This document shows, in pieces, positions 7,216-57,928 of a DNA stretch of 64,000 nucleotides. The notes below the pieces were generated by a model. The model was not told the DNA's origin, did not search any database, and worked only from the letters and a program-made list of their open reading frames with translations. This DNA is from Acidobacteriota bacterium (lineage in GTDB: Bacteria > Acidobacteriota > Blastocatellia > Pyrinomonadales > Pyrinomonadaceae), in NCBI GenBank assembly GCA_020199995.1, contig JAIVJM010000016.1, positions 10,932 through 74,931 on the forward strand. Reading direction: 5' to 3'. The translations under genes and the position numbers were made by a program. Each line of letters begins with the position of its first letter. The stretch's first letter is position 1.

Positions 7216-7249
7216 AAACAGTAAGCAGTGAGCAGTAAGCAGTAAACCC
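7216..7249. repeat. Heptamer-repeat array (CAGTRAG x4-5); left arm of a split inverted repeat
   Basis: The sequence is aaaaCAGTAAGCAGTGAGCAGTAAGCAGTAAAccc. There is no local complementary partner. The complement lies at 9701-9747. Confidence 0.75.
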
Positions 7250-7543
7250 AGTCATGCCCGAGTTGATTGACTGCCCTTTGTGACTCTGAAACCATCGGAC
7301 AGGGCCTTCAACGACCGTGCGGACATTGACTCCTTCCCCCGCTCGATCTATCGTTTGGTCCACAAAAGAGTCGGACGGTCTTCCTCGCAAGGCTCCCCAG
7401 ACGCGGCGCTCAAATTACCTGAGACGCGCCGACGACGGCACACAACCCAATTAGCACCGGGCAGTGCCGCGTTGATTCACGAACACCTCGCGTCCCTTTA
7501 ACGCCTCGCACCCTTTCACAGCCTCCTCGCAAGAAAGGCACCC

Positions 7544-9076
7544 ATGAGAAGATTTCTCGTCATCGTCCTCCTGCCCGCCTTGACACTGGCCCCTGCCTTC
7601 GGCCAGAGCGTTGACTGGGACGGACGCGGCACAGGGACTAATTTGAAGCTGGATCGGATGGAGCGCAAGTCGTCTTCCAGAAGCAGCAGCAGCGAGCGCA
7701 ACGACAGAGACACCGAAAGTATGTACATCCCTCCGAGCCCGCCCGACCCTCTGCCCGACCTCGTCGGCGGCTATCGCAGCCTGCGAGGATGGTTCAGGAG
7801 CGATTTGTTCCCGGACGCCCCCGGCCTCGTCGAGCCGTCCAACATCTCGGAGCTGTACTGGTCGCTCTCAGCCCTGTCCGACTACGCTGGCGGCAAGCTT
7901 CGGAGCCTGAGATCGAAGGCAGCCGCGCTGAGGTCGCGCCATCAGGAGTTACAGGAACAGTTGCGCCGCGACAGCGACTTCAGCGCGGAACTCGCCCGCG
8001 AGATAGCCGAGATTGAAAGCGACATCGCACGCTCCAGCAGCGAAGCGCGGGAAGTCGAAGGCAAGCTCACGGCGCAGGGGGCGCTGCTCGAACAGGTCAC
8101 GTCCACTTTGAGACGGATCGAAGAGGAGACGAAGGCGAAGAAGGCCGAAGTGTTCCAGAGGCTCAGCGAGGCTCAGCGTCGCGGCGTCATACTGCCGCCC
8201 AGCAGTTACCGCAAGCTGCCGGAGCCGCCGCCGCCGGGCTACCGCCGCTGGGACGAGCCGCGCGCCGGAGTCGTCGCCATCCAACCGAATATGGTCGCGC
8301 CTGAAGCCATACGGGCGTTAGCGCCCGCCTCCGCCGCGCCCTTGAGCGTCAGACCCAGTTTCCCGCTGGCTCCGCTTGCGGCCCGTCGCGGCCCCGTCGG
8401 CGAACACGATGTGCGGCAGAAGATGGCCGAGATCAGCAGTACGATGCCGCTGATCAATGCTGCGACCGTGGCGCTTAACGAGGTCTACCAGCAAGTTGTC
8501 CAGCAGGAACGGCTGGCCGCCGCGACTTCGAGCGCCGTCGGGGCCTTACGCCAGCAGGCCGACACCCTCCACTCCGACCGGGAGAGTTCCGCCAATGCTC
8601 TGAATCAGGCAAAGGGGAAGCTGAGTGATGCCGTCGCCGCCTACCAGCGCCAGAGGGAGAGGCTGCCGCTTCACTGCCTCGAACAGGCTTTCTGGCAATA
8701 CTCCTACAAGAACATGATCAGCATGCTTGAAGTCAAAGAGCTGGCCTCGCAGACGAAGGAGTTGGCTACGGGAAGCGCCGCGGACAGGTACGTCAATGTG
8801 GACATCCCGGAGGGGGTTGAGGCGGCGCTGCCCGACATTGACATCAGAAACGTCCGCCGCGCCAAGAGGGTGATGAATCACATCGTCGAGTTGGGTGCGG
8901 ACACGCAGAAGGTTATCCTGCGCGTGCCCAACGTGTTCAATGACTTGGAGAGGCCGGAAGAACTTCACGCGGCCATGAAGGACGTGGTGAACCGCTTTCA
9001 ATTGAACCTCGCCGACGAGCTGAGCGTCGTACCCGAACCGCTGAAGTGGCTCTTCAACAGTAAGGGGACGCCATGA
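7544..9076 (+). CDS. Hypothetical secreted coiled-coil protein
   Basis: 510 aa. It has signal peptide MRRFLVIVLLPALTLAPAFGQ, a Ser-rich acidic tract (KSSSRSSSSERNDRD), long heptad-like helical regions (ELQEQLRRDSDFSAELAREIAEIESDIARSSSEAREVEGKL) and a Pro-rich linker (LPEPPPPGYRRW). I recognise no family. Confidence 0.6.
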   Translation: MRRFLVIVLLPALTLAPAFGQSVDWDGRGTGTNLKLDRMERKSSSRSSSSERNDRDTESMYIPPSPPDPLPDLVGGYRSLRGWFRSDLFPDAPGLVEPSNISELYWSLSALSDYAGGKLRSLRSKAAALRSRHQELQEQLRRDSDFSAELAREIAEIESDIARSSSEAREVEGKLTAQGALLEQVTSTLRRIEEETKAKKAEVFQRLSEAQRRGVILPPSSYRKLPEPPPPGYRRWDEPRAGVVAIQPNMVAPEAIRALAPASAAPLSVRPSFPLAPLAARRGPVGEHDVRQKMAEISSTMPLINAATVALNEVYQQVVQQERLAAATSSAVGALRQQADTLHSDRESSANALNQAKGKLSDAVAAYQRQRERLPLHCLEQAFWQYSYKNMISMLEVKELASQTKELATGSAADRYVNVDIPEGVEAALPDIDIRNVRRAKRVMNHIVELGADTQKVILRVPNVFNDLERPEELHAAMKDVVNRFQLNLADELSVVPEPLKWLFNSKGTP

Positions 9077-9672
9077 GGCGAAGTGTGCTCGCCGCTTTAA
9101 TTGCACTCGTCGTGCTGGCTGGCGGCGCGGCCTTCTATTACTTCCGGCATCGCACCCAGCAGCCTTTAGCTCGCCCGCTTGCGGGCAGAGAACAGGACAT
9201 ACAATCGTCGAGGGTGGCCGCCGTCCGCGAGACCCCTTTGCCGAATTTGCTGCAACAGCCAGGGCTGGTCAGCCGACGCTTCGCCCCCATGCGCCTCTAT
9301 GTGTCGGTCGCCCCCGAAATCGCAATCAAAAGGACGGACGGCGGCGCGGATTCGTCGAAGGATGAGATACTCGACATAGTGCCGATTCTCATCGTGTTGG
9401 AGAACGACAGCTATCAGGAAGTGGACGCCAGACGAGACCTCAAACTCGAAGGCGAAGAGTTATTCAACGTCTTCGTCACACACTCCGCTTCAGGGATTGT
9501 GTTCCGCCACAGTGAGCCCGCCGTGGAAACAGTCTGGGGGCCTGCCGAGAGGAAAACTTTCAAAGTACCCTGGCAGCCCACGATTGAGTCTTTGCCCGGC
9601 GAGTGCGTCATCTCCATGCGGCTCGCCTTCGGCGGTTCCGACGAAGTACAAATTCGCACCCGCCTGAAGTAA
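9073..9672 (+). CDS. Hypothetical membrane-anchored protein, translationally coupled to the preceding ORF
   Basis: It makes an ATGA start/stop overlap with 7544..9076. There is one N-terminal TM helix (VLAALIALVVLAGGAAFYYF). I recognise no family. Confidence 0.55.
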   Translation: MRRSVLAALIALVVLAGGAAFYYFRHRTQQPLARPLAGREQDIQSSRVAAVRETPLPNLLQQPGLVSRRFAPMRLYVSVAPEIAIKRTDGGADSSKDEILDIVPILIVLENDSYQEVDARRDLKLEGEELFNVFVTHSASGIVFRHSEPAVETVWGPAERKTFKVPWQPTIESLPGECVISMRLAFGGSDEVQIRTRLK

Positions 9673-9700
9673 ACAGTTAAGACGGCTGACCATGCCTGAC

Positions 9701-9747
9701 TCCTTACTGCTTACTCCTTACTGATCACTGCTTACTGCTCACTCTCC
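9701..9747. repeat. Heptamer-repeat array (CTYACTG); right arm complementary to 7216-7249
   Basis: The sequence tccttactgcttactccttactgatcactgcttactgctcactctcc is the reverse complement of the CAGTRAG words. Confidence 0.75.
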
Positions 9748-9828
9748 AATGCTGTCCCGCGCGGGCTGATTGGTGATATAAAAGCCGGGCCGATTTTCCA
9801 ACTCCCAGACACGAAGCGCGAAAGTTCA

Positions 9829-11654
<1,826 letters not shown>

Positions 11655-14697: not shown

Positions 14698-14856
14698 ATG
14701 AGCCACCGCAGGCACAGAGGGCACAGAGACAATCAAGGAAAGAAAGAGGGATGTGTTAAGGAAGGGTTGAATGATTCAACTCTCTATTAACACATCCCTC
14801 TTTACCTTTCTTCGTCCTGTCTTTCTCTCTGTGCCTGCGGTGTCTCTGTGGCTCAT
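14698..14856. repeat. Long imperfect inverted repeat (arms about 60-65 nt) with a central palindrome
   Basis: The left arm atgagccaccgcaggcacagagggcacagagac...gagggatgtgttaa pairs with ttaacacatccctc...gtctctgtggctcat. The centre contains TTGAATGATTCAA. Confidence 0.75.
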
Positions 14857-15091
14857 CTTTATCCTTGAGAATGAATAGACCCTGCCCGACCCGGAATTTT
14901 CCTTGCCAAAAACGCCGCTCCGTCTTATGCTTGCCGCAATCGCCGGAAGCGAAGGTGGTAACCATGATAAGCATGAAACTCTTCAGACTCGCCTAACTCG
15001 ACCGCAAACGGCCTCTCCGTTTCGTCTCTCATTTCCAAACATTGGAAAGCGGTTATCCGACCAGCAAATGGTCGGAAAGGTGTGTGGGTTA

Positions 15092-21863: not shown

Positions 21864-21978
21864 GGGATTACGGATTGCGGATTTCGGATTTTAGATTTCG
21901 GATTATCATTTTCCCACGAGAGACGATGCGCAGATTCTAGACCCGCCCCCGCAAATCCACAATCGCAAATCCGAAACC
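21864..21978. repeat. Heptad-periodic hairpin (GGATTNC words)
   Basis: The left arm is gggattacggattgcggatttcggattttagatttcggattatc. The right arm is gcaaatccacaatcgcaaatccgaaacc. Confidence 0.7.
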
Positions 21979-22025
21979 TGAGATGTTTTTGACTGGCGCA
22001 CGGCCAGTCTCTAGTCGTGCACCGT

Positions 22026-23207: not shown

Positions 23208-23314
23208 GAAGATGAAGAAGAAATGATGAATGCGGAATGACGAGTGGTGAATAAGAAGGAGCTTGTCCTTTATTCATCACTCATCATTCCGCATTCATCA
23301 TTTCTTCTTCCATC
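23208..23314. repeat. Heptad-periodic hairpin (AATGATG family)
   Basis: gaagatgaagaagaaatgatgaatgcggaatgacgagtggtgaataa pairs with ttattcatcactcatcattccgcattcatcatttcttcttccatc. Confidence 0.8.
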
Positions 23315-23417: not shown

Positions 23418-23723
23418 GTGTTCGAGAGCGACCTGCTTGACCCGTACGAAAAATTAATCTCCATCGAGGTGCTCGGCCAGAGCGTCGAGGTGCCCGAGAA
23501 GAACCGTCTGCTGCGCTGCTTCCAGTATCTCTCGCTGAACACCATCTCCTTCGGCGACTTCTGCTGGAACGGCGAGTGCACCAACTGCCAGTTCTGGTAT
23601 CACGAGCCGGGCGAGTCGGAGGCGCAGGACAAGACCGCGCTCTCCTGCCGCTTCGACGTGCGCGAGGGGCTCGTCGTCACACGACTCAGCCCGCACGTCG
23701 AAATCGAAGGAGTCAACAAGTGA
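23418..23723 (+). CDS. Small (2Fe-2S)-binding-domain-like protein (SoxA/HcnA N-terminal type)
   Basis: 101 aa with a GTG start. It carries the Cys cluster CWNGECTNCQ plus a later SC. The assignment is from motif memory only. Confidence 0.5.
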   Translation: MFESDLLDPYEKLISIEVLGQSVEVPEKNRLLRCFQYLSLNTISFGDFCWNGECTNCQFWYHEPGESEAQDKTALSCRFDVREGLVVTRLSPHVEIEGVNK

Positions 23724-23815
23724 AAGTCAGAAGTCCGCAACGATGAGCGATGAACTGAACGGCACGAGGGCTTTGCTTTCAGTTCATAGTTCATCGTTGC
23801 GGACTTCTGCGTTTC
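23722..23815. repeat. Heptad-periodic hairpin
   Basis: gaaagtcagaagtccgcaacgatgagcgatgaactgaa pairs with ttcagttcatagttcatcgttgcggacttctgcgtttc. Confidence 0.8.
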
Positions 23816-24868: not shown

Positions 24869-25462
24869 ATGGCCGACTGGGACGAGCGTTACCGGCGCGG
24901 CGAGCACGCGACCGACGAGCCGAGCCGCCTGCTCGTGCGCGCGGTCGAGGAGTTCGCGGCTCAAGTCGGAGGTGAAAGTTTCGGGGGCCGCCGCGCGCTC
25001 GACCTCGCGTGCGGCGCGGGCCGCCACGCGCTCTTTCTCGCGGGGCTGGGGTTTCAGGTCACGGCGGTTGACGCCTCGCGCGCCGGCATCGAACTGACGC
25101 TCGCGCGCGCACGCGAGCGAGACCTCAGCGTTGACGCGCGCGTCGCCGACCTCGAACGCGGCGAGTTCATCATCGAAGAAGCGGCTTACGATCTCGTCTG
25201 CGACTTCTACTTTCTCCAGCGCGACCTCTTCCCGCGGATGCGCGCGGGACTCCGGCCCGGCGGCCTCCTCGTCGCCGCGATTCACATGGTTGACGAGAGC
25301 CCGCTGGCGAAACCCATGCGCGATGACTTCCTCCTCCGCACCGGCGAGCTGCGCGAGGCGTTTAGCGAACTTGAAATCCTCCACTACCGAGAGACTGCTG
25401 GGCACGACGACGACGCGGGCGAGCACACGCGGCGCTCGGCGGAACTGATCGCACGACATTAA
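24869..25462 (+). CDS. Class I SAM-dependent methyltransferase (TehB-like size)
   Basis: Motif I is RALDLACGAGRHALFLA. An acidic residue sits at the end of beta-2 (VTAVDAS). 197 aa. Confidence 0.75.
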   Translation: MADWDERYRRGEHATDEPSRLLVRAVEEFAAQVGGESFGGRRALDLACGAGRHALFLAGLGFQVTAVDASRAGIELTLARARERDLSVDARVADLERGEFIIEEAAYDLVCDFYFLQRDLFPRMRAGLRPGGLLVAAIHMVDESPLAKPMRDDFLLRTGELREAFSELEILHYRETAGHDDDAGEHTRRSAELIARH

Positions 25463-25578
25463 AGAGTCAGGAGTCTGAAGTCAGGAGTCTGGAGCCGGAA
25501 AAGCCGTTCCCTCAAAAGGCACGCTCTTCGACGGCGAACTCTTAACTTCCGGCTCCAGACTCCGGACTTCAGACTCTT
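25462..25578. repeat. Heptad-periodic hairpin (GTCWGGA family)
   Basis: aagagtcaggagtctgaagtcaggagtctggagccggaa pairs with ttccggctccagactccggacttcagactctt. The loop is about 46 nt. Confidence 0.8.
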
Positions 25579-25583
25579 ATCTT

Positions 25584-26225
25584 ATGCATGACGTGATTAT
25601 CATCGGAGCAGGCGCGGCGGGGTTGTCCGCCGCGCTGTGGTGCGACGAGCTGGGACTGGACACGCTCGTGCTCGAACAGGGGGCGGAGGTCGGCGGGCAG
25701 CTCCTCAATGTCCACAACCCGATAGGGAATTATCCGGGCGTCGAGGCCGCGAACGGGACGGAGCTGCGCGACCTGTTCGCCGCGCAGGTCGCGGCGACGG
25801 TGACGCTCGTGCACCGCGGCAAGACTCTGGGCGCGCGCCGCGAGTTTGCCGAGAAGATTCAGGGCGACCACCGCATCACCGTCTTCAACGAAGCGACGCT
25901 CGAAGGAATTTTCGGGGGCGAGCGGGTCGAGGCGGTCGAAATCCTCCGGCGCGGCGCGCTCAAGCCGTTCCGCATGGCCGTGCGCGGAGTCCTCGTCCGC
26001 GTCGGCGTCGAGCCGAACGCCGAGCTGTTCGCCGGTCAGGCGCACACCGACGAACGCGGCTACCTCGTCGTCTCGGGCGAGCAGGAGACGAGCGTCGAGA
26101 ACGTCTTCGCCGCCGGAGACATCTCGAACCCGCTCGCGCCGACCGTCAGCGGGGCCTGCGGCGCGGGCGCGACCGCCGCCAAAATCATCGCCTCGCGCCT
26201 CACACTTAAAAGCCGTGAATCGTAA
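25584..26225 (+). CDS. Thioredoxin-reductase-like FAD oxidoreductase lacking the central NADPH/CxxC region (probably non-functional)
   Basis: The N-terminus DVIIIGAGAAGLSAALW...GGQL and the C-terminus VFAAGDISN...GAGATAA are TrxR-like. Only 213 aa are present, and the sequence jumps from AAQVAA directly to TVTLVHRG. Confidence 0.6.
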   Translation: MHDVIIIGAGAAGLSAALWCDELGLDTLVLEQGAEVGGQLLNVHNPIGNYPGVEAANGTELRDLFAAQVAATVTLVHRGKTLGARREFAEKIQGDHRITVFNEATLEGIFGGERVEAVEILRRGALKPFRMAVRGVLVRVGVEPNAELFAGQAHTDERGYLVVSGEQETSVENVFAAGDISNPLAPTVSGACGAGATAAKIIASRLTLKSRES

Positions 26226-26295
26226 ATCGTCAATCGCGAATAGAAGGAATCAGTTCTTTCTTGTCACGATTGACGATTTACGATTCACGGCTTTT
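26208..26295. repeat. Heptad-periodic hairpin (RAATCGT family)
   Basis: aaaagccgtgaatcgtaaatcgtcaatcg pairs with cgattgacgatttacgattcacggctttt. The TAA stop of the preceding ORF lies inside the left arm. Confidence 0.85.
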
Positions 26296-26349
26296 ACCGT
26301 TTGCGTTCGGCGCGTGGCGCTGATACTTTTTCGCGGGACGCTAAGACAG

Positions 26350-26687: not shown

Positions 26688-26775
26688 AAATAATGAACGC
26701 CTATGCGTTGAATGATGAATCAGAAGCAAGCTGTCTCTCTTTCATTCATCATTCAACATTCCGCGTTCATCATTT
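26688..26775. repeat. Heptad-periodic hairpin (AATGATG family)
   Basis: aaataatgaacgcctatgcgttgaatgatgaat pairs with ttcattcatcattcaacattccgcgttcatcattt. Confidence 0.8.
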
Positions 26776-26781
26776 GTCGTT

Positions 26782-31596: not shown

Positions 31597-31722
31597 AAAA
31601 AGACAGTGAGCTGTGAGCAGTAAGCTGTGAGCAGTAAAGACAATTCGAGATTTGAGATTTCAAATTTGAAACCTCAAATCTTGACATCCTAACTGCTCAC
31701 TGCTTACTGCTTACTGTCTTTT
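31597..31722. repeat. Heptad-periodic hairpin (CAGTRAG family) with a nested inner hairpin
   Basis: The outer arms are agacagtgagctgtgagcagtaagctgtgagcagtaaagac and ctaactgctcactgcttactgcttactgtctttt. The inner hairpin is gagatttgagatttcaaatttgaaacctcaaatct (31647-31681). Confidence 0.85.
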
Positions 31723-32920: not shown

Positions 32921-33004
32921 AAAATCGTGAATCGTCAATCGTGAATCGTCAATCGTGAAGATAGAAAAACCCGTTCTTTCTGATGACGATTTACGATTTA
33001 CGGC
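32921..33004. repeat. Heptad-periodic hairpin (RAATCGT family)
   Basis: The left arm aaaatcgtgaatcgtcaatcgtgaatcgtcaatcgtgaag pairs with the right arm cgatttacgatttacgg. Confidence 0.8.
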
Positions 33005-33996
33005 TTTGGTATCTCCCTGTCCGGCGTGTAGGCGCGCTTGGCGTTGACCTTGAGGCCGTCGGCGCTCGCGAGCTTGACTTCGATGCGGCGCTCCCTGCCA
33101 TCGAAGGGGCCTTCCGGCCTGTAGGTGATGAGGTACTGCGAGCGCAGCTCCTCGCCGATCTTCTGGAAGGCGCGTTCGAGCGCGAGCATGTCGCCGGTGT
33201 AGAAGGAGCGCCCGCCGGTCTCTTCGGAGAGCTTCTGAATATCCTTGTCGCCGCCGTCCTTGACGGTGCCGGCCTCGACGCCGGGCACGGCGCTCGTCGC
33301 AAAGCCGCCCTTCGTCGAGATGGCGAAGATGATGGTATCTGTCTTCTGCGCCATCTGGATGGCGTCCGAGAGCCGCGCGCGGCTGTAGGTGTCATCGCCG
33401 TCCGTGATGACGACCAGCGCGCGGCGCGGGCTGTTGGCGTTGCGCATCTTCTCGTCGCAGAACTGCCAGACGGCATCGTAGAGCGCGGTCCGGTTGCCCG
33501 GTTTCTTGACCCCGTTGACGGCGCGGTCAAGGAGGTCGAGGTTCGTCGTGAAGTCCTGACGGAGGATGATCTCGTCGTCAAAGGTGAGGAAGGCGACGCG
33601 GTCTTTGCGCGAGCGCGTCACGGTATAGATGAAGTTGAGCGCCGCCTCCTTCTCGAACTTGAGCTTGCCGGCGGTCGAGCCCGACGTGTCCATCAGCACG
33701 CCAATGTAGATCGGGAGCTTCTGGAGTTCTTTAATCTCGCCGAGAAAGTCGAACTGCACGGGCTTCTTGTCCTCGAAGACGGAGAAGTCGTTTTTGGTGA
33801 GCCCCGTCACCGGCTTGCCCTTCTTGTCGAGCACCGTGACGGGCACGCGGACGACGCGCGAGGTGGTGCTCTCGCGCTCCTCCTGCGCGGGCGCGGGGGG
33901 CGAGCGCGGCGCGGGCGTCTGCGCCGTGGCGGCGGCCAGCAGCACGCCGGCCAGAAACACGAACGAACTCATAACTTTGACGGTCTTCATCATCAT
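32998..33996 (-). CDS. Secreted VWA-domain protein (paralog of 31711..32904)
   Basis: Signal peptide MMMKTVKVMSSFVFLAGVLLAAATAQ. MIDAS motif VLMDTSGST. It has the same domain order as its neighbour. The start is one of ATG 33996, 33990 or 34032. Confidence 0.8.
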   Translation of the reverse strand: MMMKTVKVMSSFVFLAGVLLAAATAQTPAPRSPPAPAQEERESTTSRVVRVPVTVLDKKGKPVTGLTKNDFSVFEDKKPVQFDFLGEIKELQKLPIYIGVLMDTSGSTAGKLKFEKEAALNFIYTVTRSRKDRVAFLTFDDEIILRQDFTTNLDLLDRAVNGVKKPGNRTALYDAVWQFCDEKMRNANSPRRALVVITDGDDTYSRARLSDAIQMAQKTDTIIFAISTKGGFATSAVPGVEAGTVKDGGDKDIQKLSEETGGRSFYTGDMLALERAFQKIGEELRSQYLITYRPEGPFDGRERRIEVKLASADGLKVNAKRAYTPDREIPKP

Positions 33997-38712: not shown

Positions 38713-38797
38713 CAAGCCGTGAATCGTCAATCGTAAATCGTGAATCGGTAACAGAAGTTCTTTCTGTTTACGATTCACGATTTACGATTCACGGATT
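38713..38797. repeat. Heptad-periodic hairpin (RAATCGT family)
   Basis: caagccgtgaatcgtcaatcgtaaatcgtgaatcggtaacagaa pairs with ttctgtttacgattcacgatttacgattcacggatt. The right arm contains the lspA stop codon. Confidence 0.85.
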
Positions 38798-43184: not shown

Positions 43185-43290
43185 ATTTTCAGTTTCCAGT
43201 TTTCAGTTTTCAGACTTCGGTTTTCGGTTCATGGATTGGCCATCTCAAAGCTGAGATGGCAGAACTGAAAACTGAAAATTGAAAACCGAC
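43185..43290. repeat. Heptad-periodic hairpin (TTTCAGT words) with a nested central hairpin
   Basis: The arms are attttcagtttccagttttcagttttcagacttcggttttcggttc and aactgaaaactgaaaattgaaaaccgac. The inner hairpin is GCCATCTCA-AAG-CTGAGATGGC (43239-43260). Confidence 0.8.
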
Positions 43291-43680: not shown

Positions 43681-43807
43681 AAGAAGGGCAAAAGGAAAAA
43701 GGAAAAAGGAAAAAGTAAGAGAGCCAAGGCGACGCGCGCCGGGCTCTCGCTTCACTCGTCAGGTTCTTTCTTCTACTTTTACCTTTTTCCTTTTTCCTTT
43801 TGCCTTC
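43681..43807. repeat. Heptad-periodic hairpin (GGAAAAA words)
   Basis: aagaagggcaaaaggaaaaaggaaaaaggaaaaagtaagag pairs with ttctacttttacctttttcctttttccttttgccttc. The right arm reaches the stop codon of the next gene. Confidence 0.8.
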
Positions 43808-46103: not shown

Positions 46104-46197
46104 AGAGGCTTGAGGCCTTGAGACTTGAGGCTCAAAACAGCTTGAGGCCGGAGACTTGTTCTTTAACAAGTCTCCGGCCTCAAGCCTCAACCCTCTC
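46104..46197. repeat. Heptad-periodic hairpin (CTTGAGR words) with a perfect 20-bp inner stem
   Basis: The inner stem is cttgaggccggagacttgtt-ctt-taacaagtctccggcctcaag (46141-46184). It is flanked by gagaggcttgagg and cctcaaccctctc. Confidence 0.85.
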
Positions 46198-50111: not shown

Positions 50112-50153
50112 TTGAGATATTTTGTTGAATTCCAGGACGGCCCATAACAGACC

Positions 50154-51797
50154 TTACCCGGTGCGCCCGGCGAGGTTGGCGACGACGGCGACCAACTCGC
50201 TCGGGCTAATCGGCTTCGGCACATGTATCTGGAAGCCTGATTGAAGCACCCGGATGCGAGCTTCTTCGCCCGCGTAAGCTGTCAGTGCCGCCGCCGCCGG
50301 AATCTTACCCCCGCGCTCCTTCCCAAGAGCGCGCACTTTAGCAATCAGGGAGTAGCCATCTTCATCCGGCATCCCGATGTCGCTGATAAGCACGTCGAAC
50401 GCTTCTTCCGCTACCGCTTCCAGCGCGGCGGCTGCCGAACTTGCCGTTTTCACCCGCGCCCCGCAGCCTTCGAGTATGAATTGCAGCAACTCACACGTGT
50501 CCGCTTCGTCGTCAACGACAAGCACACGGAGACCATCAAGCTCCGGCGGGCACTCGAACTCCGGCGGCTTAAACTCCGGCCTCTCCGGCGCGCTCCCGGT
50601 GTCGCTTGTCGCACTGCGCACCGCCATCAACGGCAGACTGACAGTGAAGGTCGAGCCAAGACCTTCACCCTTGCTGTCAACCCGCACCATCCCGCCATGC
50701 AATTCGACCAGTTGACGGACAATCGCTAAACCTAAGCCTAACCCGCCGAATGCTCGCGTGGTCGTCGCATCGGCTTGCCGGAAGCGGTCGAAGACGTGCG
50801 GCAGGAACTCCGGCGCGATGCCAAGACCTGTATCGCTGACTGTCATTTCGACATGTGATTCGACGCGCTCCAGTCGAATCAGCACGCGCCCGGCCTTAGG
50901 CGTAAACTTGATGGCATTCGAGATGAGATTCCACGCTACCTGTTGCAGCCGGTCAGGGTCGCCGGAGACTTGCCCCGCCGGAGAATCAAGTTGCAACTGC
51001 AAACGTATCTCTTTGGCCTCCGCCGCCGGGCGCAGGCCGTCAACCGCCGCGATGATGATGGCTCCGAGGTCAACGGGTTGCACGCTCATGCGCAGCTTGC
51101 CGGTGATGATGCGCGCGACATCGAGCAGATCGTCAACCATCTGCACTTGCATCTGCGCATTACGCCGGATGACTTCGGCGGCGCGTAAGGAAGTTACGGG
51201 GTCGAGCCTAGGGTCTCTTAACATCTCCGCCCACCCGACAATCGCAGTCAGTGGGGTGCGGAGTTCGTGCGAGAGCGTGGCGAGAAATTCATCTTTGAGA
51301 TGGTTCGCTCTCTCCGCGGTTTCCGTGAGCTCATGTTGCCGGGTTGCGGAGAGCAGGAGCTGTTCGTTCATCTCCACCGCTTGTCTTCGGAAGGACGCTA
51401 TCTCCGTCACATCGGTCACCTGAATGATGACCCCCACCGGGTGTTCGTCCGACCCGAGGATGGCCCACACCGAATAAGACCAGTAAACGGGTGGCGTTGT
51501 ATGGCTGTGCTCCTGCTCGACTAAAATCTCCGGCGTTCCCGTGCGATACACACGGTCTAAAAGCGGGAGACATCCATTTTCATCCCCTTCCGGCACGGCC
51601 TCGGCGAAGGGGCGTCCGATCAGTTCCTCTCGCTCCCTCCCGACAAGGCGCGCGAACGCGGCATTGAGGTGGCGCGCGATGTGCGTTGTTCCCTCGACGG
51701 CAACCATCGGCTGCGGTGAAAGTTCGGAAAAGTATCGGCACAGACGCACAATGTCGAAAGCCTGCGCCCCCGTGACTGACCATGGTTTCTCACGCAT
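50154..51797 (-). CDS. Hybrid sensor histidine kinase / response regulator (PAS-HisKA-HATPase-REC)
   Basis: H-box FLATLSHELRTPL, G-boxes (GLGIAPE, GGLGLGLAIV), and a REC domain (VLVVDDEAD...DVLISDIGMPDEDG...PKP). An AGGAG SD lies 9 nt after the kaiC stop. Confidence 0.9.
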   Translation of the reverse strand: MREKPWSVTGAQAFDIVRLCRYFSELSPQPMVAVEGTTHIARHLNAAFARLVGREREELIGRPFAEAVPEGDENGCLPLLDRVYRTGTPEILVEQEHSHTTPPVYWSYSVWAILGSDEHPVGVIIQVTDVTEIASFRRQAVEMNEQLLLSATRQHELTETAERANHLKDEFLATLSHELRTPLTAIVGWAEMLRDPRLDPVTSLRAAEVIRRNAQMQVQMVDDLLDVARIITGKLRMSVQPVDLGAIIIAAVDGLRPAAEAKEIRLQLQLDSPAGQVSGDPDRLQQVAWNLISNAIKFTPKAGRVLIRLERVESHVEMTVSDTGLGIAPEFLPHVFDRFRQADATTTRAFGGLGLGLAIVRQLVELHGGMVRVDSKGEGLGSTFTVSLPLMAVRSATSDTGSAPERPEFKPPEFECPPELDGLRVLVVDDEADTCELLQFILEGCGARVKTASSAAAALEAVAEEAFDVLISDIGMPDEDGYSLIAKVRALGKERGGKIPAAAALTAYAGEEARIRVLQSGFQIHVPKPISPSELVAVVANLAGRTG

Positions 51798-51806
51798 ATC
51801 GCACTC

Positions 51807-53324
51807 CTACTCATTACTTTCCGGTTCGTCCATTGACTCATGGATTTCTCCCGGTTCACCATTCCATGGGCCGGGAACTCCGGTGGTCAGACCGCGATAG
51901 CCCTCCAATCGCTCGCCGATGACAAGACCCTCGGAAGTGATTTCGAATTCGCGCATGTCTACGCTGTGTGCGCTGCGACGCATCTTGATGATGACCATCA
52001 TCTTGCGGAGTTGGCCGTTGATGGAGACGTACCGCAGGCGGAGGATGTCGTCACTCAGGAACGAGATCGCGTATGAGCTGAGGGTGAACTCGGTAAAAGT
52101 CTCCTGAACTTCAACGGTGCTGAGGATCGTCACGCCCGTCCTCGTGAGTGCGCCGATCATCCGGTACAGCGATTCCCGGAAGTCGGTGCGGAAGCCGGGA
52201 GCCAGCGCCATCTCGAACCCGGCCAGCGAATCTATCACCAGCCGCTTAGCGCCCAACGCCTCCACCGCATCTATGATTTCACGCACCGTCTCATCCACGG
52301 ACAGGTCGAGGGGGCGGATGTAGAGGAGTTTGAGTGTGCCCTCCTTCTGCGGCGTGTCCAGGTCAAGGCCAAAGCTGGCGGCACGGTCCGCGTACTCCTT
52401 GGGCCGCTCCTCGAACATCGCCACGATCCCCGGCTCCCCCTGACGGATGCCCTCGACGATGAACTTGGTACCCAGCAGCGACTTCCCCGTCCCCGATGAA
52501 CCCGCCACCAGCAAGCTGTCCCCTTCGGGAATGCCCCCGCCCATCATCTCGTCCAGTTCGGGGATACCGCTCGAAAGTCGACGATGCCCCTTGGGTTTCT
52601 CTTCACTGTCGTTGAGACCGAGGGTGCGCGGGAAGGTTTGCAGCCCCGCATCGGTGATGCGGAAGGTGTGCAGCCCCGGCACCGAGGCTTGCCCGCGCGA
52701 CTTCCTGATCTGCAACTTCCGCACGATGGAGTTCCGCTCTATCTGCTGCGAGAGCCAGAAGAATCCGTCGGCGACGGTGAAGACGGGGTTATCACGAATC
52801 TCGCCCTCGTCGTATTCTCCGATGAGAAACGTGGTCGCCTGCCAGCTCGTCAGATTAACGGCTAGCCGCTGGATGAAACCCTGAAGTTCCACGTCACTTC
52901 CGCCGGACTGTGCCTTCCGCACCACGGTGCGAAAAGAGTCCACCACGACGATGCCGGGACTGACCGCCTCGACCTCTTTGACAATCTCCTCCAGCACCGC
53001 GTTCAGGTCTTGATCGAGCACGACCTGACTGAGGTTGATGAAGCGGACCGAGGTGTTCAACTTGGTCTGGTCGAAAAATTGAAACTGCTGCTGATACCGC
53101 AGCATCTTGATGGCCGGTTCGCCCAGCACGGTGAAATACAGCGCGGGGCGCTCCGGCTTGGCATTGGCGAACATGATTTGATGAGCCAACGTCGTCTTCC
53201 CGCCACCGGGCGCGCCCGCGATGATGTTAAAAGAAAACTCCGGCAAGCCGCCGCCCAGAATCTCATCCAGACCCGGCACGCCGGTCGGCAGTGTCCGAAT
53301 CTCCACCTTGTCTTGCACGCTCAT
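51807..53324 (-). CDS. kaiC: KaiC-like double RecA-domain ATPase
   Basis: There are two Walker A motifs (GAPGGGKT and GSSGTGKS). GVPGLDEILGGGLP and GIPELDEMMGGGIP open each half. 505 aa. Confidence 0.9.
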   Translation of the reverse strand: MSVQDKVEIRTLPTGVPGLDEILGGGLPEFSFNIIAGAPGGGKTTLAHQIMFANAKPERPALYFTVLGEPAIKMLRYQQQFQFFDQTKLNTSVRFINLSQVVLDQDLNAVLEEIVKEVEAVSPGIVVVDSFRTVVRKAQSGGSDVELQGFIQRLAVNLTSWQATTFLIGEYDEGEIRDNPVFTVADGFFWLSQQIERNSIVRKLQIRKSRGQASVPGLHTFRITDAGLQTFPRTLGLNDSEEKPKGHRRLSSGIPELDEMMGGGIPEGDSLLVAGSSGTGKSLLGTKFIVEGIRQGEPGIVAMFEERPKEYADRAASFGLDLDTPQKEGTLKLLYIRPLDLSVDETVREIIDAVEALGAKRLVIDSLAGFEMALAPGFRTDFRESLYRMIGALTRTGVTILSTVEVQETFTEFTLSSYAISFLSDDILRLRYVSINGQLRKMMVIIKMRRSAHSVDMREFEITSEGLVIGERLEGYRGLTTGVPGPWNGEPGEIHESMDEPESNE

Positions 53325-53806
53325 GGTTTTTCCTCACCTCTCAAATGCGCTCCGTCCGTGGACGCCTCCGGCCATGTGTCAAGCACCAGGCGCAGAGTCA
53401 AAGCTTCGCCGATGAAGGTCGTCAGCAGTTCCAGCAGGTAGGCCACAAGAACCGCTCCGGCCTCTCCCGCCGCCGCCGCCCCCTCCCCCTCGCTCCCCTC
53501 GATTCCATCGAATCCCTCCACAGAGCCGTCCGCGCGTACCTGCACCATATTCAGCGAGGGAACTTCCGCCTTCGCCAGTGTCAGAGCGCGGGATAAAAGA
53601 GAGCGAAAGCCGTCAACTCCCGCGAGCCTGATGAGGTACAAACGTAACTCTCCAATGACCAGCGCCGCGACACCTACGCGTGCATCTGACGAGTTGGCGC
53701 GCGCCGCCTCAAACACGAGTAAGCGCCGGGCCAGTTCTTGATTTTGTGGTGAAGCCGTACTCATCGGGTGCGCCTCTGACGCCTCATTGTAACTGCTCTC
53801 AGACAT
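53321..53806 (-). CDS. Hypothetical protein translationally coupled to kaiC
   Basis: It makes an ATGA overlap with the kaiC start. 161 aa, or 147 aa from ATG 53764 with an AGAGG SD. I recognise no family. Confidence 0.55.
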   Translation of the reverse strand: MSESSYNEASEAHPMSTASPQNQELARRLLVFEAARANSSDARVGVAALVIGELRLYLIRLAGVDGFRSLLSRALTLAKAEVPSLNMVQVRADGSVEGFDGIEGSEGEGAAAAGEAGAVLVAYLLELLTTFIGEALTLRLVLDTWPEASTDGAHLRGEEKP

Positions 53807-53823
53807 GGGCTTTATTGGTGCTC

Positions 53824-54948
53824 TTACTCTACTCCTGCTTTGTCAGGAATAGTGAATCGAAACGTCGAGCCTTGACCGAGTTCACTTTCGACCGCAACCT
53901 CTCCGCCGTGGGCTTCAGCGAACTGCTTGACGATGGCGAGGCCGAGTCCCATCCCGCTTTTTTTGTCCGGGTCGGTTTCTAATTTATCGAACACTTTTTC
54001 CAGCCGGTCTGCTGGAATCCCTGCGCCGTTGTCGCTCACCCAGCATTCGATGAAAGCGGATTCTTTGATTATCTTCGCACCGACAATAACTTCTCCGTTC
54101 GGGGTGTAGTCAATGGCGTTAGAGATCAAGTTCTGAAAGATAAGGGTCAACATGTTGGCATCGGCGAACGCTGTCAACTCTTCGGGCACTTCGTTGGTCA
54201 AACACAGGTTCGAAGCTGCGGCCAGTGGACTGAGGTCGCTGACGAGCACTTCAACCAGCGCCCTCAGTTTTACTTCCTGCCGCTCCACCTTTTCGTTCAC
54301 CTGCGCCTTCAGATTCGCTTCTTCCCGCACTACTTTGACGACCAATGAATTTAAGCGGCTGACATTACGATGCATGGTTTCCAGTAACATGCTAGCCCGC
54401 TCGTCCTTCACTACGTCAGGGACTGTCGCTTCGAGAAGCTTGGCCGCCATCGCGATAGCTGAAAGTGGAGACCTCAGATCGTGGGCGACGAAGGTTAAAT
54501 GCTCCTCACGCCGTTGCTGTATCTCGAGAGCCTTTTGCGCGGCATACGTCTTCACCGCCAGACCGATTGAGACGTCAATAACGCGGTTGATGGTTCGGTT
54601 GACCACCCCACGAAGTCTCAAGTCATGCCTTTCGATAAGGTCCTGAATGACGCCGCGCAGGGCGTTGTATTCCGCCACCACCTCCTCGACATCGAATCCG
54701 AGGCGGAGCCGATCCAGCCCATGAGTAATAGGATTTTCTTTTAGTCCTTCGATCATCGACTCGTCGGAACACAGTTCAAGCTCACAGGCTAATTCCTCGA
54801 GCAAATCGGGGATGTGATCGTTAAGAGTCGGCACGTCGAGGTTATGCGCCACAGAAAGCTGTTGCACCTCGCGCCGCCATTCGGCGAGTAAGGTATCGCG
54901 CTCTCGTCTAATCAGCGCCGCCAGTGCGTCGAGATTTTCAGCCGACAT
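53824..54948 (-). CDS. Sensor histidine kinase with a helical RsbRD-N/globin-coupled-like N-terminal domain
   Basis: H-box FVAHDLRSPLSAI and an HATPase domain (SNAIDYTP, DNGAGIP, GMGLGLAIV). The N-terminal 150 aa resemble the RsbR-type non-haem globin sensor domain; this is from memory. Confidence 0.8.
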   Translation of the reverse strand: MSAENLDALAALIRRERDTLLAEWRREVQQLSVAHNLDVPTLNDHIPDLLEELACELELCSDESMIEGLKENPITHGLDRLRLGFDVEEVVAEYNALRGVIQDLIERHDLRLRGVVNRTINRVIDVSIGLAVKTYAAQKALEIQQRREEHLTFVAHDLRSPLSAIAMAAKLLEATVPDVVKDERASMLLETMHRNVSRLNSLVVKVVREEANLKAQVNEKVERQEVKLRALVEVLVSDLSPLAAASNLCLTNEVPEELTAFADANMLTLIFQNLISNAIDYTPNGEVIVGAKIIKESAFIECWVSDNGAGIPADRLEKVFDKLETDPDKKSGMGLGLAIVKQFAEAHGGEVAVESELGQGSTFRFTIPDKAGVE

Positions 54949-55035
54949 TTTTCTACTCCGTGAAGCGCCGGGTTGGATCGGGACAGCGCAGATATCATGT
55001 TTCGTTCAGAGATTCAACTATCTGCCGTCCTTCAC

Positions 55036-57447
55036 TCAACCTGATCGCTCTCGTTGAATGAGGCTCGCCATGACGGTCACCAGCTCGGCCAGCTCGACCG
55101 GCTTAGAGATATGCATCTGAAAGCCCGCCCTCAGCGCCCGCAGGCGGTCTTCGGTTCTCGCATACGCCGTCAGGGCGATGGCCGGTATTTTCCCTCCGCG
55201 GGCGGCAGGCAGCGCCCTTACTTTCCTGATCAACGCGTAACCGTCCTCGACCGGCATCCCGATGTCGCTGATTAAGAGATCGGGCCGCTCCGCTTCGATA
55301 GCTTCGAGCGCCTCTTGAGCGGAGCTGGTAGTCAAGACTTCCGCACCGCATTGGCCGATCCCGACCCTGAGTAACTCCCTCGTATCAGCCTCATCGTCAA
55401 CCACGAGCACCTTCAGCCCGTCTAATCTTTCGGGACAGGTGTATGAGAGGAGCGGGTCTCTGGCCGCCGGGTGGACGCGCTCCGCAAGTTTATCCTTTTG
55501 ATAGACCGGAACTACGGGGAGCTTCACGACGAAAGTTGCCCCCTGTCCTTCGCCCTGACTGTCAGCCTCGACCGTGCCGCCGTGCAGCTCTACCAGATGG
55601 CGGACGATTGCCAGCCCCAGTCCGAGCCCGCCGTGCTGGCGAGTCGTCTTCTGGTCGGCCTGACGGAATCGCTCGAAGACGTGCGGCAGAAACTCCGGTT
55701 TGATCCCGGCCCCCGTGTCGCTGACCGTGATCTCGATGTGCGAGTTGATGCGCTCGAGCCTGATTTGCACCCTCCCGTCTTTGGGGGTGAACTTGATGGC
55801 GTTCGACAGTAAATTCCAGACGACCTGTTGAAGACGCGCCGGGTCGCCCGCGACGGAAATCACGCCCGTGTCCATCACCTTCTGAATCCGCACGTTTTTA
55901 GCTTCGGCTGCCGGTCGCAGTGCCTCGATGGCCGATTCGATGAACGAGCCGGGCTCAACCTGCCTGACATCGAGGCGCAACTTGCCTGTAATGATCCTCG
56001 ACACGTCGAGCAGGTCGTCAATGAGCTGCGACTGCGCGCGCGCGTTACGTTCGATGGTCTCAAGCGCGCTGGTCGTACTTGTTCCATCGATTTGTCCGGA
56101 GCGCAGCAGGTGCGCCCAGCCGAGGATGGCCGTGAGCGGCGTCCGCAATTCGTGCGAGACGGTGGCGAGGAACTCGTCCTTCAGGCGGTTCGCTTCCCGC
56201 AGCTCTTCAGCCGTGCGGCGCTGCTCGTCAACGTCCGTGTTCGTGCCGAACCAGCGCACAATTTGGCCCTGAGAACCGCGGAGCGGATTGACGCGCGTCA
56301 GGAACCAGCGGAACACGCCGTCAGCACCCTTGAGCGGGAACTCCATCTCGAACGGCTCGCCGGTCTCGATTGATGCTTTCCATCTCTCGACCACTCGCGG
56401 CAGCATCTCCGCGTCGTGGACGGACTGCCAGCCCCACCCTTCCATCTGCTCGGGCGTCGTCCCCGTGTAGTCGTACCACCTCTGGTTATACCAGAAGATG
56501 TAACCCTCGGCATCGGCCATCCACACCAGCTGCGGCACGGCGTCGGCGAGCGTGCGGAGCTGCCCCTCGCTCTCCCGCAACGCTTCTTCAGCACGTTTGC
56601 GCTCGGTGATATCGAGCGACAGGTAGAGCACTGCCCCTGCCCTGCCGTTTCGCCCCGGCAGCGCAGTCCACGTGACTAGTAATTGCCGCCGTCCATTCGG
56701 GAGATCGACTTCAATCTCATCAGTTTCGCTGAGGCCGGTCGTGTACACGCGGCCCAGAATGGAAGCCACTACTTTGTCGGCTTCGGGCACGACTTCGGCG
56801 TGGGAGCGCCCCAGGAACTGCTCTTCAGAAAGACCCGTAAGTTCACACGTCTGCCGATTAACTAATACGAAACGGTGGTCCGGGCCCTCCATTATGCCGA
56901 TGGCGAGCGGGGCGTGCTCCAGCACGAGTTGGGTTAAGTTCCGCTGCCGCTCGGCCTCGGCCCGGGCCGACTGTTCGCGTGAAAGCAGCTCCTCAAGCTG
57001 ACTTCTGGAATTATGCAGCTCTTCTTCAGCCCGCTTACGCTCCGTGATGTCGCGCGTGAAGCAGCGCGTGTGGACAAACTTGTCCTCCTCCCACATCACG
57101 TTCGAGTTGATGAGCACGTGCCGGACCGATCCGTCCTTACATCTCAGTTGCGCCTCGTGGTCGTGGAGCGTCTCATTGTTCGTCAGCCGGCGCAGGATGT
57201 CGTTGATGACACCGCTGTCGGCGTGAAACTCGGTGATGCTGCGCCCGATATACTCTTCCCGTGTGTAGCCGAGCATGTCCAGCTCGGCCTGATTAGCCCA
57301 CAGGATCGTCCCGTCGGCCCCGACCCAGTGCAGGCAGACTGAGGCATTTTCGATAAAGTCGGCCAGCTCATGCTCGCGCCGGCGCAGCTCTTCGAGAGTA
57401 TTTCTCTCCTCAAGAGAGCGTTCAGGAATTACATCGTCAATAGCCAT
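55036..57447 (-). CDS. Hybrid sensor histidine kinase / response regulator with three PAS domains
   Basis: There are three PAS blocks, each ending in DITERK or TNTDVDE. H-box FLATVSHELRTPL, an HATPase domain, and REC (VLVVDDEADT...DLLISDIGMPVEDG...SKP). The start is ATG 57447, or TTG 57477 as in the track. Confidence 0.9.
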   Translation of the reverse strand: MAIDDVIPERSLEERNTLEELRRREHELADFIENASVCLHWVGADGTILWANQAELDMLGYTREEYIGRSITEFHADSGVINDILRRLTNNETLHDHEAQLRCKDGSVRHVLINSNVMWEEDKFVHTRCFTRDITERKRAEEELHNSRSQLEELLSREQSARAEAERQRNLTQLVLEHAPLAIGIMEGPDHRFVLVNRQTCELTGLSEEQFLGRSHAEVVPEADKVVASILGRVYTTGLSETDEIEVDLPNGRRQLLVTWTALPGRNGRAGAVLYLSLDITERKRAEEALRESEGQLRTLADAVPQLVWMADAEGYIFWYNQRWYDYTGTTPEQMEGWGWQSVHDAEMLPRVVERWKASIETGEPFEMEFPLKGADGVFRWFLTRVNPLRGSQGQIVRWFGTNTDVDEQRRTAEELREANRLKDEFLATVSHELRTPLTAILGWAHLLRSGQIDGTSTTSALETIERNARAQSQLIDDLLDVSRIITGKLRLDVRQVEPGSFIESAIEALRPAAEAKNVRIQKVMDTGVISVAGDPARLQQVVWNLLSNAIKFTPKDGRVQIRLERINSHIEITVSDTGAGIKPEFLPHVFERFRQADQKTTRQHGGLGLGLAIVRHLVELHGGTVEADSQGEGQGATFVVKLPVVPVYQKDKLAERVHPAARDPLLSYTCPERLDGLKVLVVDDEADTRELLRVGIGQCGAEVLTTSSAQEALEAIEAERPDLLISDIGMPVEDGYALIRKVRALPAARGGKIPAIALTAYARTEDRLRALRAGFQMHISKPVELAELVTVMASLIQRERSG

Positions 57448-57632
57448 CAGGATTATTTGACCCTTGGTGCAAAACAAGAGAAGCGCAGTGGGGGTTCTCT
57501 AACCGGACTTCTCATTAAACGGGGGAAATTCATTATACGAGGTAATACAAAGATGTACATCTCTACTATAGAGGATGTGAATGTTCCGGGGTGTGCTGTA
57601 GGCGCAGCTCCCAACGGTACTTTTCATTTCGG

Positions 57633-57815
57633 TCACTGCTTTCGCGAGTAGACGTAGAACATGACGCAGATGACGAGGACGAGGAGTGCTTCGAGCTGGA
57701 TGAAGTATTGGCGGTCGAAGCGGCCCGCGTCGTCGAAGGCGAGCGGGTAGAGAAAGAAGCTGCCGAAGGCGAGGCCGGCGGCGAGCCAGATGATTTGGCG
57801 CTTCCTGTCCCACAT
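57633..57815 (-). CDS. Possible small two-helix membrane protein
   Basis: MWDRKRQIIWLAAGLAFGSFFLYPLAFDDAGRFDRQYFIQLEALLVLVICVMFYVYSRKQ. The only support is the ORF and its hydrophobicity. Confidence 0.35.
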   Translation of the reverse strand: MWDRKRQIIWLAAGLAFGSFFLYPLAFDDAGRFDRQYFIQLEALLVLVICVMFYVYSRKQ

Positions 57816-57821
57816 CTTTTT

Positions 57822-57928
57822 TAAGAAGTCAGGAGTCCCGAGTCTGGAGCATGAAGTTAAGAAGTTCAGAGTCGAAGAGACTCTCTTTTTCCTGCTCCAG
57901 ACTTCAGACTCCAAGCTCCGGACTATCC
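57822..57928. repeat. Heptad-periodic hairpin (GTCWGGA family)
   Basis: aagaagtcaggagtcccgagtctggagca pairs with tgctccagacttcagactccaagctccggactatcc. The right arm contains the aminotransferase TAG stop. Confidence 0.8.

Follow-up and report, generated by a model that had tools for sequence, protein, structure and literature searches.

Palindromic arrays of degenerate heptamers at gene junctions of Pyrinomonadaceae and other Blastocatellia

Tandem repeats of a 7-nt unit occur in cyanobacteria as short tandemly repeated repetitive (STRR) sequences, whose words include CCCCAGT and CAACAGT. The closest described system is found in high-GC Xanthomonas campestris, where 186 GGGAATC heptamer arrays include 70 convergent inverted pairs (Rehm et al. 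2015, PMC4692102). About 75% of the X. campestris arrays lie in convergent pairs, 89-93% of arrays are intergenic, and their mean distance is 28 nt from the upstream and 160 nt from the downstream open reading frame (ORF); two species carry arrays, variable in length and sequence, at the same junctions, and no function has been assigned (PMC4692102). The same report covers GGGGA(C/T)T arrays of Nostoc and cites earlier work in which an excess of heptanucleotide repeats in bacteria, which has no accepted explanation, had been noted by 2007; the polymerase-slippage idea of Mrazek et al. for the 7-nt unit is taken here as it is cited there. In Beggiatoaceae, TAACTGA repeats form 169 direct sets and one indirect set (MacGregor 2015, PMC4679880). 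Repetitive extragenic palindromic (REP) sequences, as outlined by Di Nocera et al. (2013, PMC3733652), measure 20-40 bp, bear a terminal tag, GTAG or CGTC, and follow one or a few consensus sequences in each genome; their hypothesised roles are mRNA stabilisation, termination and supercoiling. Here a related class of intergenic elements, hairpins whose arms are runs of degenerate heptamers, is described from a 64,000-nt stretch (the window; positions 10,932 to 74,931 of contig JAIVJM010000016.1) of the metagenome-assembled genome of an Acidobacteriota bacterium assigned to the Pyrinomonadaceae (Blastocatellia), and from its relatives.

The window (GC content 65%) carries ordinary chromosomal genes, among them ileS-lspA-lgt-rluD, a sigma-54 activator, Ser/Thr kinases and ABC transporters, as judged from a Pfam scan of about 50 ORFs. 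An inverted-repeat search and Tandem Repeats Finder (TRF) were run over its whole length. Long imperfect inverted repeats were present at the loci listed in an initial annotation made from the sequence, and TRF resolved hairpin arms into arrays of period 7 or 14. A count of 21-nt segments with at least 18 lag-k self-matches (lags 4-15, entire window) returned ten runs at lag 7, five at lag 14 and none or one at each other lag. Tested locus by locus, lag 7 was the best lag in 16 of the 18 listed arms (shuffle p<=0.008), and the heptameric make-up that the initial annotation had ascribed to all of them held for these; it failed at 14698 (lag-7 identity 0.29, p=0.56) and 16781 (0.32, p=0.27), both genuine long hairpins. 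Complete heptamer hairpins number 14 (Table 1), and the proposed split pair indeed consists of single half arrays, 7219-7245 and 9699-9753, mutually inverted and 2.45 kb apart. A full hairpin occupies 14 of the 37 window junctions of at least 40 nt, roughly one in three, and 13 of 24 in the part between 9.6 and 46.2 kb; the original wording, nearly every gene junction, was overstated. No Rfam family reached its gathering score in the window. A permissive search of 43.1-43.9 kb and 14.6-17.0 kb returned only sub-threshold matches to microRNA precursors, which arise because such models score any long hairpin, and a search of the window for tRNA and tmRNA genes was negative.

Patterns of occurrence were analyzed in 161 sequences totalling 1.7 Mb, namely the window, 80 loci of isoleucyl-tRNA synthetase (IleRS) and 80 metagenome loci, designated below by L numbers. 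The relatives found with the window IleRS belong to Pyrinomonadaceae and Blastocatellia (Acidobacteriota), the best being L001 (83% protein identity); the closest relatives obtained, at the protein level, are L081 (90% identical) and L001. Look-ups by exact protein returned no strain-level relative, probably owing to start codons that are called differently. The set contains 304 long ungapped inverted repeats, 136 of them with arms AT-shifted relative to the locus. The predicted lag-7 signal was recovered: 62% of the 136 had a lag-7 identity of at least 0.6, a level reached at any other lag from 2 to 12 by 4% at most. Likewise, an inverted partner was found within 250 nt of 146 of 202 heptamer arrays (72%), as against 10 of 370 random control segments, and of 85 of 98 arrays (87%) in loci with a GC content of at least 0.60. 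Heptamer arrays occur in Pyrinomonadaceae and Blastocatellia loci spanning GC contents of 0.44 to 0.70, and there are hardly any in the outgroup loci from outside the Acidobacteriota (L075-L077, L079 and L080). Their architecture recurs in over 100 assemblies made independently in different projects, a 5-Mb contig among them. The arrays comprise 72 canonical words among 135 arrays, each with few copies, and at least ten word families are present within the 64 kb of the window. Words of the 5' arm are mostly AT-rich (AATGATG, ATTGCCG, ACAGTAG and others), few have GGG, and GATT, CAGT and TGAT are recurrent cores. These results indicate that the heptamer palindromes are real, statistically robust and common to the lineage, and that they form a class of intergenic DNA palindromes across Blastocatellia.

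In these elements several degenerate heptads make up an ungapped core arm of 24-65 nt (median 31); the median loop is 28 nt, and the arm GC content is 0.44 versus 0.59 for the loci. In a census of 45 co-directional junctions from 23 high-GC loci, the median start of the hairpin core lies 1 nt past the upstream stop codon (interquartile range -5 to 8) and its median end 31 nt short of the next start, showing that the elements occupy the space from the stop codon to the promoter or ribosome-binding site of the following gene. Within the window, the stop codon frequently falls in the first or second heptad (11579, 26207, 32921, 38714 and 57822), so that the elements set ORF ends. Stop triplets number 2.24 in 5' arms and 0.91 in 3' arms; selection of heptads to close all three reading frames was considered and rejected, since arm composition predicts about 2.3 and 1.35 and thus accounts for the counts. 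At least five T within the 10 nt past the stem were seen in 16 of 95 related hairpins (17%), in keeping with the initial remark that only a few have a U-tract. TG-extended promoter-like sites lie beyond three hairpins, in the sense direction. A motif, TGTTATNNT, occurs three times in the window (0.6 expected), at 31565-31573, 43649-43657 and 46069-46077 on the minus strand; in the sense direction, a hairpin precedes each copy by 20-40 nt. The motif is conserved in L001, L003 and L007, and its copies are probably extended -10 promoter elements. A scan with consensus terminators and promoters gave counts near those of shuffles, and only two promoter-like sites past hairpins were useful.

The four word families reported to recur within the window (CAGTRAG, RAATCGT, AATGATG and GTCWGGA) were all borne out. 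The RAATCGT copies at 26207, 32921 and 38714, originally linked by a shared stem base, have common termini (AAAAGCCGTG...CACGGCTTTT) and a common loop (GTTCTTTCT), as does a fourth copy at L008:3313, and their consensus reads AAAAGCCGTGAATCGT...GAACAGAAAGAAC..GTTCTTTCTGTTC...CACGGCTTTT. Similarly, an AATGATG-family composite, GATGAATGCGGAATGATGAAT, is found in the window, L081 (twice), L086, L103 and L010, and the composite GATGAATGCGGAATGA of the hairpin at 23214..23310 recurs in L081, L086, L103 and L010. Termini and loops are common to the members of a family, both in the window and from genome to genome, and most members have no T-tract, which matches the earlier view of dispersed related elements as opposed to independently evolved canonical terminators. 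Hairpins of one family also stand in the loop of another, as at 31598-31722 in the window and in L084 and L063. Clear cases of nesting in relatives are L084:1289-1436 (GGGTGTT inside AATGATG), L063:22109-22284 (AGGAGTC inside GGTGATA) and L162:7800-7960 (GAGATTT inside GGGATGA).

The epimerase gene lies next to the amidohydrolase gene in L161 and L162. The outer flanks are conserved with the window, where two ORFs without Pfam match (7544-9672), bounded by inverted CAGTAAG arrays, separate the two genes. By this comparison the split pair 7219/9699 appears to be a single junction divided by a 2.45-kb two-gene insert. Another segment, the horizontally acquired island at 48.7-57.6 kb, holds no heptamer hairpin. 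This island (48700-57600) has a lower GC content (0.57-0.60), and all syntenic relatives lack it, their sequence passing directly from 48.6 kb to 57.6 kb. Its genes specify a GDSL lipase, hybrid histidine kinases, a KaiC-like ATPase and an RsbR-like kinase.

Synteny of the window with L001, L003, L006-L008, L010 and L063 is extensive, and junctions could be followed from genome to genome. Compared as the initial annotation had proposed, orthologous junctions differ by heptad-sized indels, by replacement of words and by an empty site, in L003. At junction 43186 the L001 orthologue has the identical word and differs by two 7-nt indels, L003 has a one-heptad mini-palindrome (CAGTAGACTACTG) and L007 a multi-heptad version. 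At junction 43687 the words are GGAAAAA in the window, GGCAAAA in L001, GGTGATA in L063, GTAGACG in L007, AATGATG in L010 and ATTGCCG in L049, and orthologue comparison reveals a GGAAAAA to GTAAAAA change in both arms. The flanks of junction 46105 align between the window and L001, and the hairpins themselves (CTTGAGG versus AAAAGGC) are unrelated; at 57822 the L001 orthologue belongs to the GTCWGGA family and that of L008 is a RAATCGT element. Arrays with a 14-nt ABAB period match at 95-100% (TRF), and junction 11579 carries a perfect (GATGAAT)x5 in the window versus degenerate versions in L161 and L162. In L003 (GC content 0.70), short GC-rich stems with T-rich tails occur at junctions 43687 and 31597.

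Variant heptads are mirrored from arm to arm, and arm complementarity is 0.93 in register versus 0.76 when slid by 7 nt, the latter value being also the lag-7 self-identity. Among four orthologues of junction 23722, 14 of 34 pairs have changed on both sides and 93.9% of cells are paired; none of 500 shuffles matches this pairing, and slid controls reach 2 at most. Selection at the RNA level predicts more G.U than A.C mismatches on the sense strand. Minimum free energy folding of the 15 hairpins in the window that have an assigned sense gave 35 G.U versus 39 A.C, and the sense strand of 48 co-directional hairpins 39 versus 48 (p=0.39). The missing G.U excess, together with the numerous G:C to C:G double changes at junction 23722, favours DNA-level copying or replacement by paralogues as the likely origin of arm symmetry. 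In Escherichia coli, quasipalindrome template-switch mutagenesis transfers changes between the arms of an imperfect palindrome by copying at the DNA level. Mirrored heptad variants without an RNA-strand G.U bias suggest such a process here; to our knowledge, template switching is known as a single-locus mutational hotspot and not as the maintenance of a genome-wide repeat family.

The likeness to the Xanthomonas arrays is close. Both systems consist of heptamer tandem arrays in a high-GC genome, are intergenic with convergent inverted pairs, lie nearer the upstream ORF (here median 1 versus 31 nt, there 28 versus 160 nt) and occupy the same junctions in relatives with variable length and sequence and with degeneracy at fixed heptad positions. 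Even the words are alike, as GGGAATC rotated is GAATCGG, one base different from the GAATCGT found here. Inverted heptamer arrays are therefore already known as a repeat type, and the initial claim that no class of palindromic heptamer arrays had been described was too strong given this precedent in high-GC Xanthomonas (Rehm et al. 2015, PMC4692102). The Xanthomonas arrays, however, are built on a single G-rich word with G-quadruplex potential, whereas dozens of mostly AT-rich words without G-runs are used here. New are thus this diversity of AT-rich words, the phylum (Acidobacteriota), the near-perfect long palindromy with mirrored variant heptads and, beyond the Xanthomonas report, the nesting, the stop codons within arms and the turnover of families at orthologous junctions. 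A literature search on Blastocatellia and Chloracidobacterium returned no description of these elements.

The relationship to STRR sequences, also proposed initially, holds only in part, for the tandem 7-nt unit. Like these and the TAACTGA repeats, the elements are intergenic, lineage-wide and highly abundant, with head-to-tail copies (at least three units); CAGT is a core common to STRR words and the words here, and TAACTGA resembles AAACTGA, a rotation of the TTTTCAG word. In STRR and TAACTGA repeats the one or few words of a genome form direct arrays, often immediately ahead of start codons; here, by contrast, dozens of words are in use, and 72% of arrays have a palindromic partner and are anchored to stop codons. 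As with the REPs and bacterial interspersed mosaic elements (BIMEs) of Enterobacteria, dispersed extragenic palindromes are found at gene 3' ends and within operons, and the insertion sequences that target some REP loops are an analogue of the nesting. REPs are associated with RAYTs (REP-associated tyrosine transposases), which are IS200/IS605-like. Unlike REPs and BIMEs, the elements have long core arms (24-65 nt, median 31), a median loop of 28 nt and at least ten word families in 64 kb, and an internal period of 7 nt is not a feature of REPs; no GTAG or CGTC tag was found at hairpin ends in the window or in the RAATCGT consensus (AAAAGCCGTG...). Assignment to REPs was rejected on this anatomy (arm size, many words, no tag); assignment to CRISPR arrays was also rejected on anatomy. 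Integron attC sites, hairpins that close every mobile cassette on its 3' side in arrays beside an integrase and that have conserved core sites, were rejected since the flanking housekeeping genes, such as ileS-lspA-lgt-rluD, are in conserved synteny across genera, the Pfam scan of about 50 window ORFs revealed no integrase and the families have no common core sequence.

The explanation preferred here, with a probability of about one half, is that the elements are palindromic microsatellites in terminator position, shaped by slippage of 7 or 14 nt and by copying from arm to arm, and that they form hairpins at transcript 3' ends, the role being inferred. Comparison between genomes supports slippage that adds or removes 7- or 14-nt units in the arms, and a DNA-level copying process, such as template switching or gene conversion within the palindrome, that keeps the arms complementary, selection on the RNA fold apparently not being what maintains them. 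It likewise supports word families that spread among junctions and replace each other at one junction, in sites that are permissive, and new elements, even genes, that can land in the hairpin loop. Transcripts that read through would gain a hairpin with a stem of about 30-45 bp right after the stop codon, which most likely hinders 3' exonucleases and, like a terminator, insulates transcription units from one another.

Several points weigh against this explanation. Copies of the RAATCGT family often show a mismatch, instead of co-variation, at the variable position of the heptad, and replacement of a whole element by a paralogue could mimic compensatory change. Template switching is deduced from the pattern of changes, and the RNA role of the hairpins is putative. 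Classical intrinsic termination is unlikely for most hairpins because a T-tract follows only 16 of 95. Heptamer hairpins are also present at 4 of 32 divergent junctions; depletion there (12% versus 26%) is not significant (p=0.18). Together with a 150-nt hairpin at the divergent epimerase/amidohydrolase junction of L162, they indicate that the elements are not confined to gene 3' ends, and at such junctions a 3'-end role is inapplicable. Finally, nothing in the analysis accounts for the size of the 7-nt unit.

The elements could instead be non-autonomous palindromes akin to REPs or miniature inverted-repeat transposable elements (MITEs), moved in trans by a transposase whose gene lies elsewhere in the genome, such as a hairpin-recognising enzyme, and targeted just past stop codons or to the tips of existing hairpins. 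This is unlikely, although several observations argue for it: families keep their termini and loop from one distant locus to another and across genomes, orthologous junctions hold different families, elements nest within loops, and the 2.45-kb insert stands between inverted arrays. Comparison of filled (window, L001) and empty (L003) sites at 43687 showed no visible target-site duplication, the empty site having a different short stem-loop; hairpin ends have no GTAG or CGTC tag; and the Pfam scan of about 50 window ORFs revealed no transposase, integrase or RAYT. A single enzyme would furthermore have to recognise 72 canonical words (135 arrays) of few copies each, and transposition leaves the 7-nt periodicity and 7-nt indels unexplained. 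Clearly unlikely is the proposal that these are ordinary factor-independent terminators, selected as RNA and evolved in place, with heptads as a by-product of slippage during stem lengthening. It agrees with the stem-loops right after stop codons and ahead of the next promoter, with the canonical GC-rich stems and T tails at the same junctions in L003 and with the A-tract and T-tract flanks of some copies, e.g. AAAAGCCGTG...CACGGCTTTT. Intrinsic terminators have short GC-rich stems, however, and the stems here are far longer (core arms of 24-65 nt) and more AT-rich (arm GC 0.44 versus 0.59 for loci); 83% have no T-tract, the transcribed strand shows no G.U excess, and the elements form dispersed families that recur at non-orthologous junctions and in other genomes, some of them between divergent genes.

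It is very unlikely that the arrays are protein-binding sites in which each heptad is the footprint of a protein coating the arm or duplex, the elements acting as regulated antitermination or stability switches; a cold-shock-domain protein, which binds one heptamer per domain, would be a candidate. A strict 7-nt period over dozens of unrelated words is consistent with such arrays, as are several families with one hypervariable heptad position and six fixed ones, the binding of Bacillus CspB to heptamer direct repeats with one protein per heptamer (MacGregor 2015, PMC4679880) and an intrinsic polarity of the arms, the 5' arm being purine-rich in 63 hairpins versus 31 (p=0.0013) with a C content of 12%. 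The diversity of words, however, disfavours a sequence-specific binder, and long inverted repeats that are not heptameric are equally purine-polar (133 versus 65), so that the polarity is not specific to heptads. The probability of chance or an assembly artefact is next to nil, given the excess of lag 7 over every other lag and over shuffles and the recurrence of the architecture in more than 100 independent assemblies, including the 5-Mb contig. A strict 7-nt unit, common to dozens of unrelated words and to lineages as distant as Blastocatellia, Xanthomonas, cyanobacteria and Beggiatoaceae, might also reflect a dedicated molecular machine, a very unlikely notion: an enzyme may write or extend heptad palindromes at hairpin tips and sites close to stop codons, or a heptad-footprint protein, for example one with cold-shock domains, may read them. 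If a heptad-reading protein existed, the elements would be tunable transcript-end or antitermination switches throughout the genome and not passive microsatellites.

Pyrinomonadaceae and other Blastocatellia are abundant in soil and have almost no molecular genetics. The density of 14 elements per 64 kb corresponds to about a thousand palindromes per 5-Mb genome; they probably mark transcript ends and are likely to be troublesome for assembly and annotation. Their many word families, nested copies and traceable orthologous junctions make slippage, arm copying and turnover directly testable, and the elements provide a natural system for the survival of long perfect palindromes in a bacterial chromosome. 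The elements are of interest to specialists in bacterial repeats and transcription.

Table 1. Heptamer elements of the window and the insert between the two half arrays (IR, inverted-repeat search; RBS, ribosome-binding site).
Feature	Coordinates	Strand	Evidence	Remarks
Half element, CAGTAAG/CAGTGAG array, 3.9 units	7219..7245		TRF period 7; lag-7 identity 0.84, p<0.0005	Divergent region upstream of epimerase gene; left edge of 2.45-kb two-gene insert
Two ORFs without Pfam match (7544-9076, 9073-9672)	7544..9672	+	Between inverted half arrays; missing at relatives' junction	
Half element, ACTGCTT/ACTCCTT array	9699..9753		TRF period 7 and 14; lag-7 identity 0.69	Reverse complement of CAGTAAG family; right edge of 2.45-kb insert; flanks conserved in L161, L162
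Hairpin, arms (GATGAAT)x5 / (TTCATCA)x3	11579..11654		IR; TRF; fold; lag-7 test	Amidohydrolase TGA stop within first heptad; RBS GGAG directly 3'; degenerate orthologous versions in L161, L162
Hairpin, GGATTNC arms	21865..21985		TRF period 7/14; fold; lag-7 identity 0.75	Flanked by glutaredoxin-like gene and Ser/Thr kinase-TPR gene
Hairpin, AATGATG family	23214..23310		IR	41-nt arms, 95% complementary; composite GATGAATGCGGAATGA
Hairpin, GTCAGAA/AACGATG heptads	23722..23815		IR; orthologue alignment	Spans from upstream stop codon to RBS of next gene
Hairpin, GTCWGRA family	25452..25595		IR; TRF period 14 at 100%	14-nt ABAB periodicity
Hairpin, RAATCGT family	26207..26296		IR; family alignment	43-nt arms, 4-nt loop; upstream TAA stop within second heptad; stem then TTTT
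Hairpin, AATGATG family	26690..26780		TRF; fold; lag-7 identity 0.62	Downstream of rhodanese gene
Outer hairpin, CAGTRAG family	31598..31722		IR; TRF; fold	Heptamer hairpin GAGATTT (31643-31685) nested inside loop; promoter-like ATGACA-18-TATACT with TG beyond, sense direction
Hairpin, RAATCGT family, asymmetric	32921..33005		TRF; fold; family alignment	5.3 versus 2.4 units; upstream stop inside first heptad
Hairpin, RAATCGT family	38714..38797		IR; family alignment; Pfam gene identities	Between lspA and lgt; lspA TGA stop inside first heptad
Hairpin, TTTTCAG family	43186..43290		IR; TRF	ytxH-like ORF crosses one arm and terminates in loop (43210)
Hairpin, GGAAAAA family	43687..43806		IR; orthologue comparison	Adjoins sigma-54 activator stop; motif TGTTATAGT beyond, sense direction
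Hairpin, CTTGAGG family	46105..46195		TRF; fold	Promoter-like site beyond, sense direction
Hairpin, GTCWGGA family	57822..57925		Fold; lag-7 identity 0.68	Overlaps aminotransferase stop

The two hairpins without heptads differ in their surroundings. That at 14698-14860 is a 171-nt hairpin of 68 pairs, without lag-7 signal, at a position between GH31 and ABC-transporter genes where L161 and L162 carry an extra aminotransferase gene. Convergent genes flank the one at 16781-16861, past which TTTTT follows; several soil metagenome contigs (L146:255-377, L150:1217-1318 and L159:826-959) repeat its arm ACCGCGAGCGGTAGCGAGTGGGTT in the form ACCGGGAGCGGTAGCGACTGGGT, which places it in a separate conserved palindromic family. 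Palindromes of yet another class, nested on AAGCCCCTGATAAGGGGC, occupy 514-722 (arms 514-553/683-722 and 589-614/625-650) within a 400-nt divergent intergenic region; they have no 7-nt periodicity and fold at -229 kcal/mol over 423 nt.

Other features of the window include a conserved structured non-coding leader upstream of an ABC-transporter ATPase gene at about 14960-15150 (L161:8390-8530; L162:14330-14490). It comprises three hairpins, e.g. CAAACGG..CCGTTTC, TTTCCAAA..TTGGAAA and CCGACCA..TGGTCGG, whose loops change between genomes, and it has no Rfam match. Nucleotide conservation across genera at 43406-43522 is 75-87%, above that of the neighbouring genes, and this segment is the N-terminal part of the YtxH-like gene (43566-43210, minus strand). 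A 63-nt tandem duplication (1977-2105; 2.0 copies, 95% identical) lies in an M48-peptidase/WD40 ORF (1295-5335, minus strand), and a GC-rich CCCCG/CCCCGCGCCGA tract with periods of 5, 11, 16 and 22 is found at 59203-59275 in a 400-nt intergenic region.

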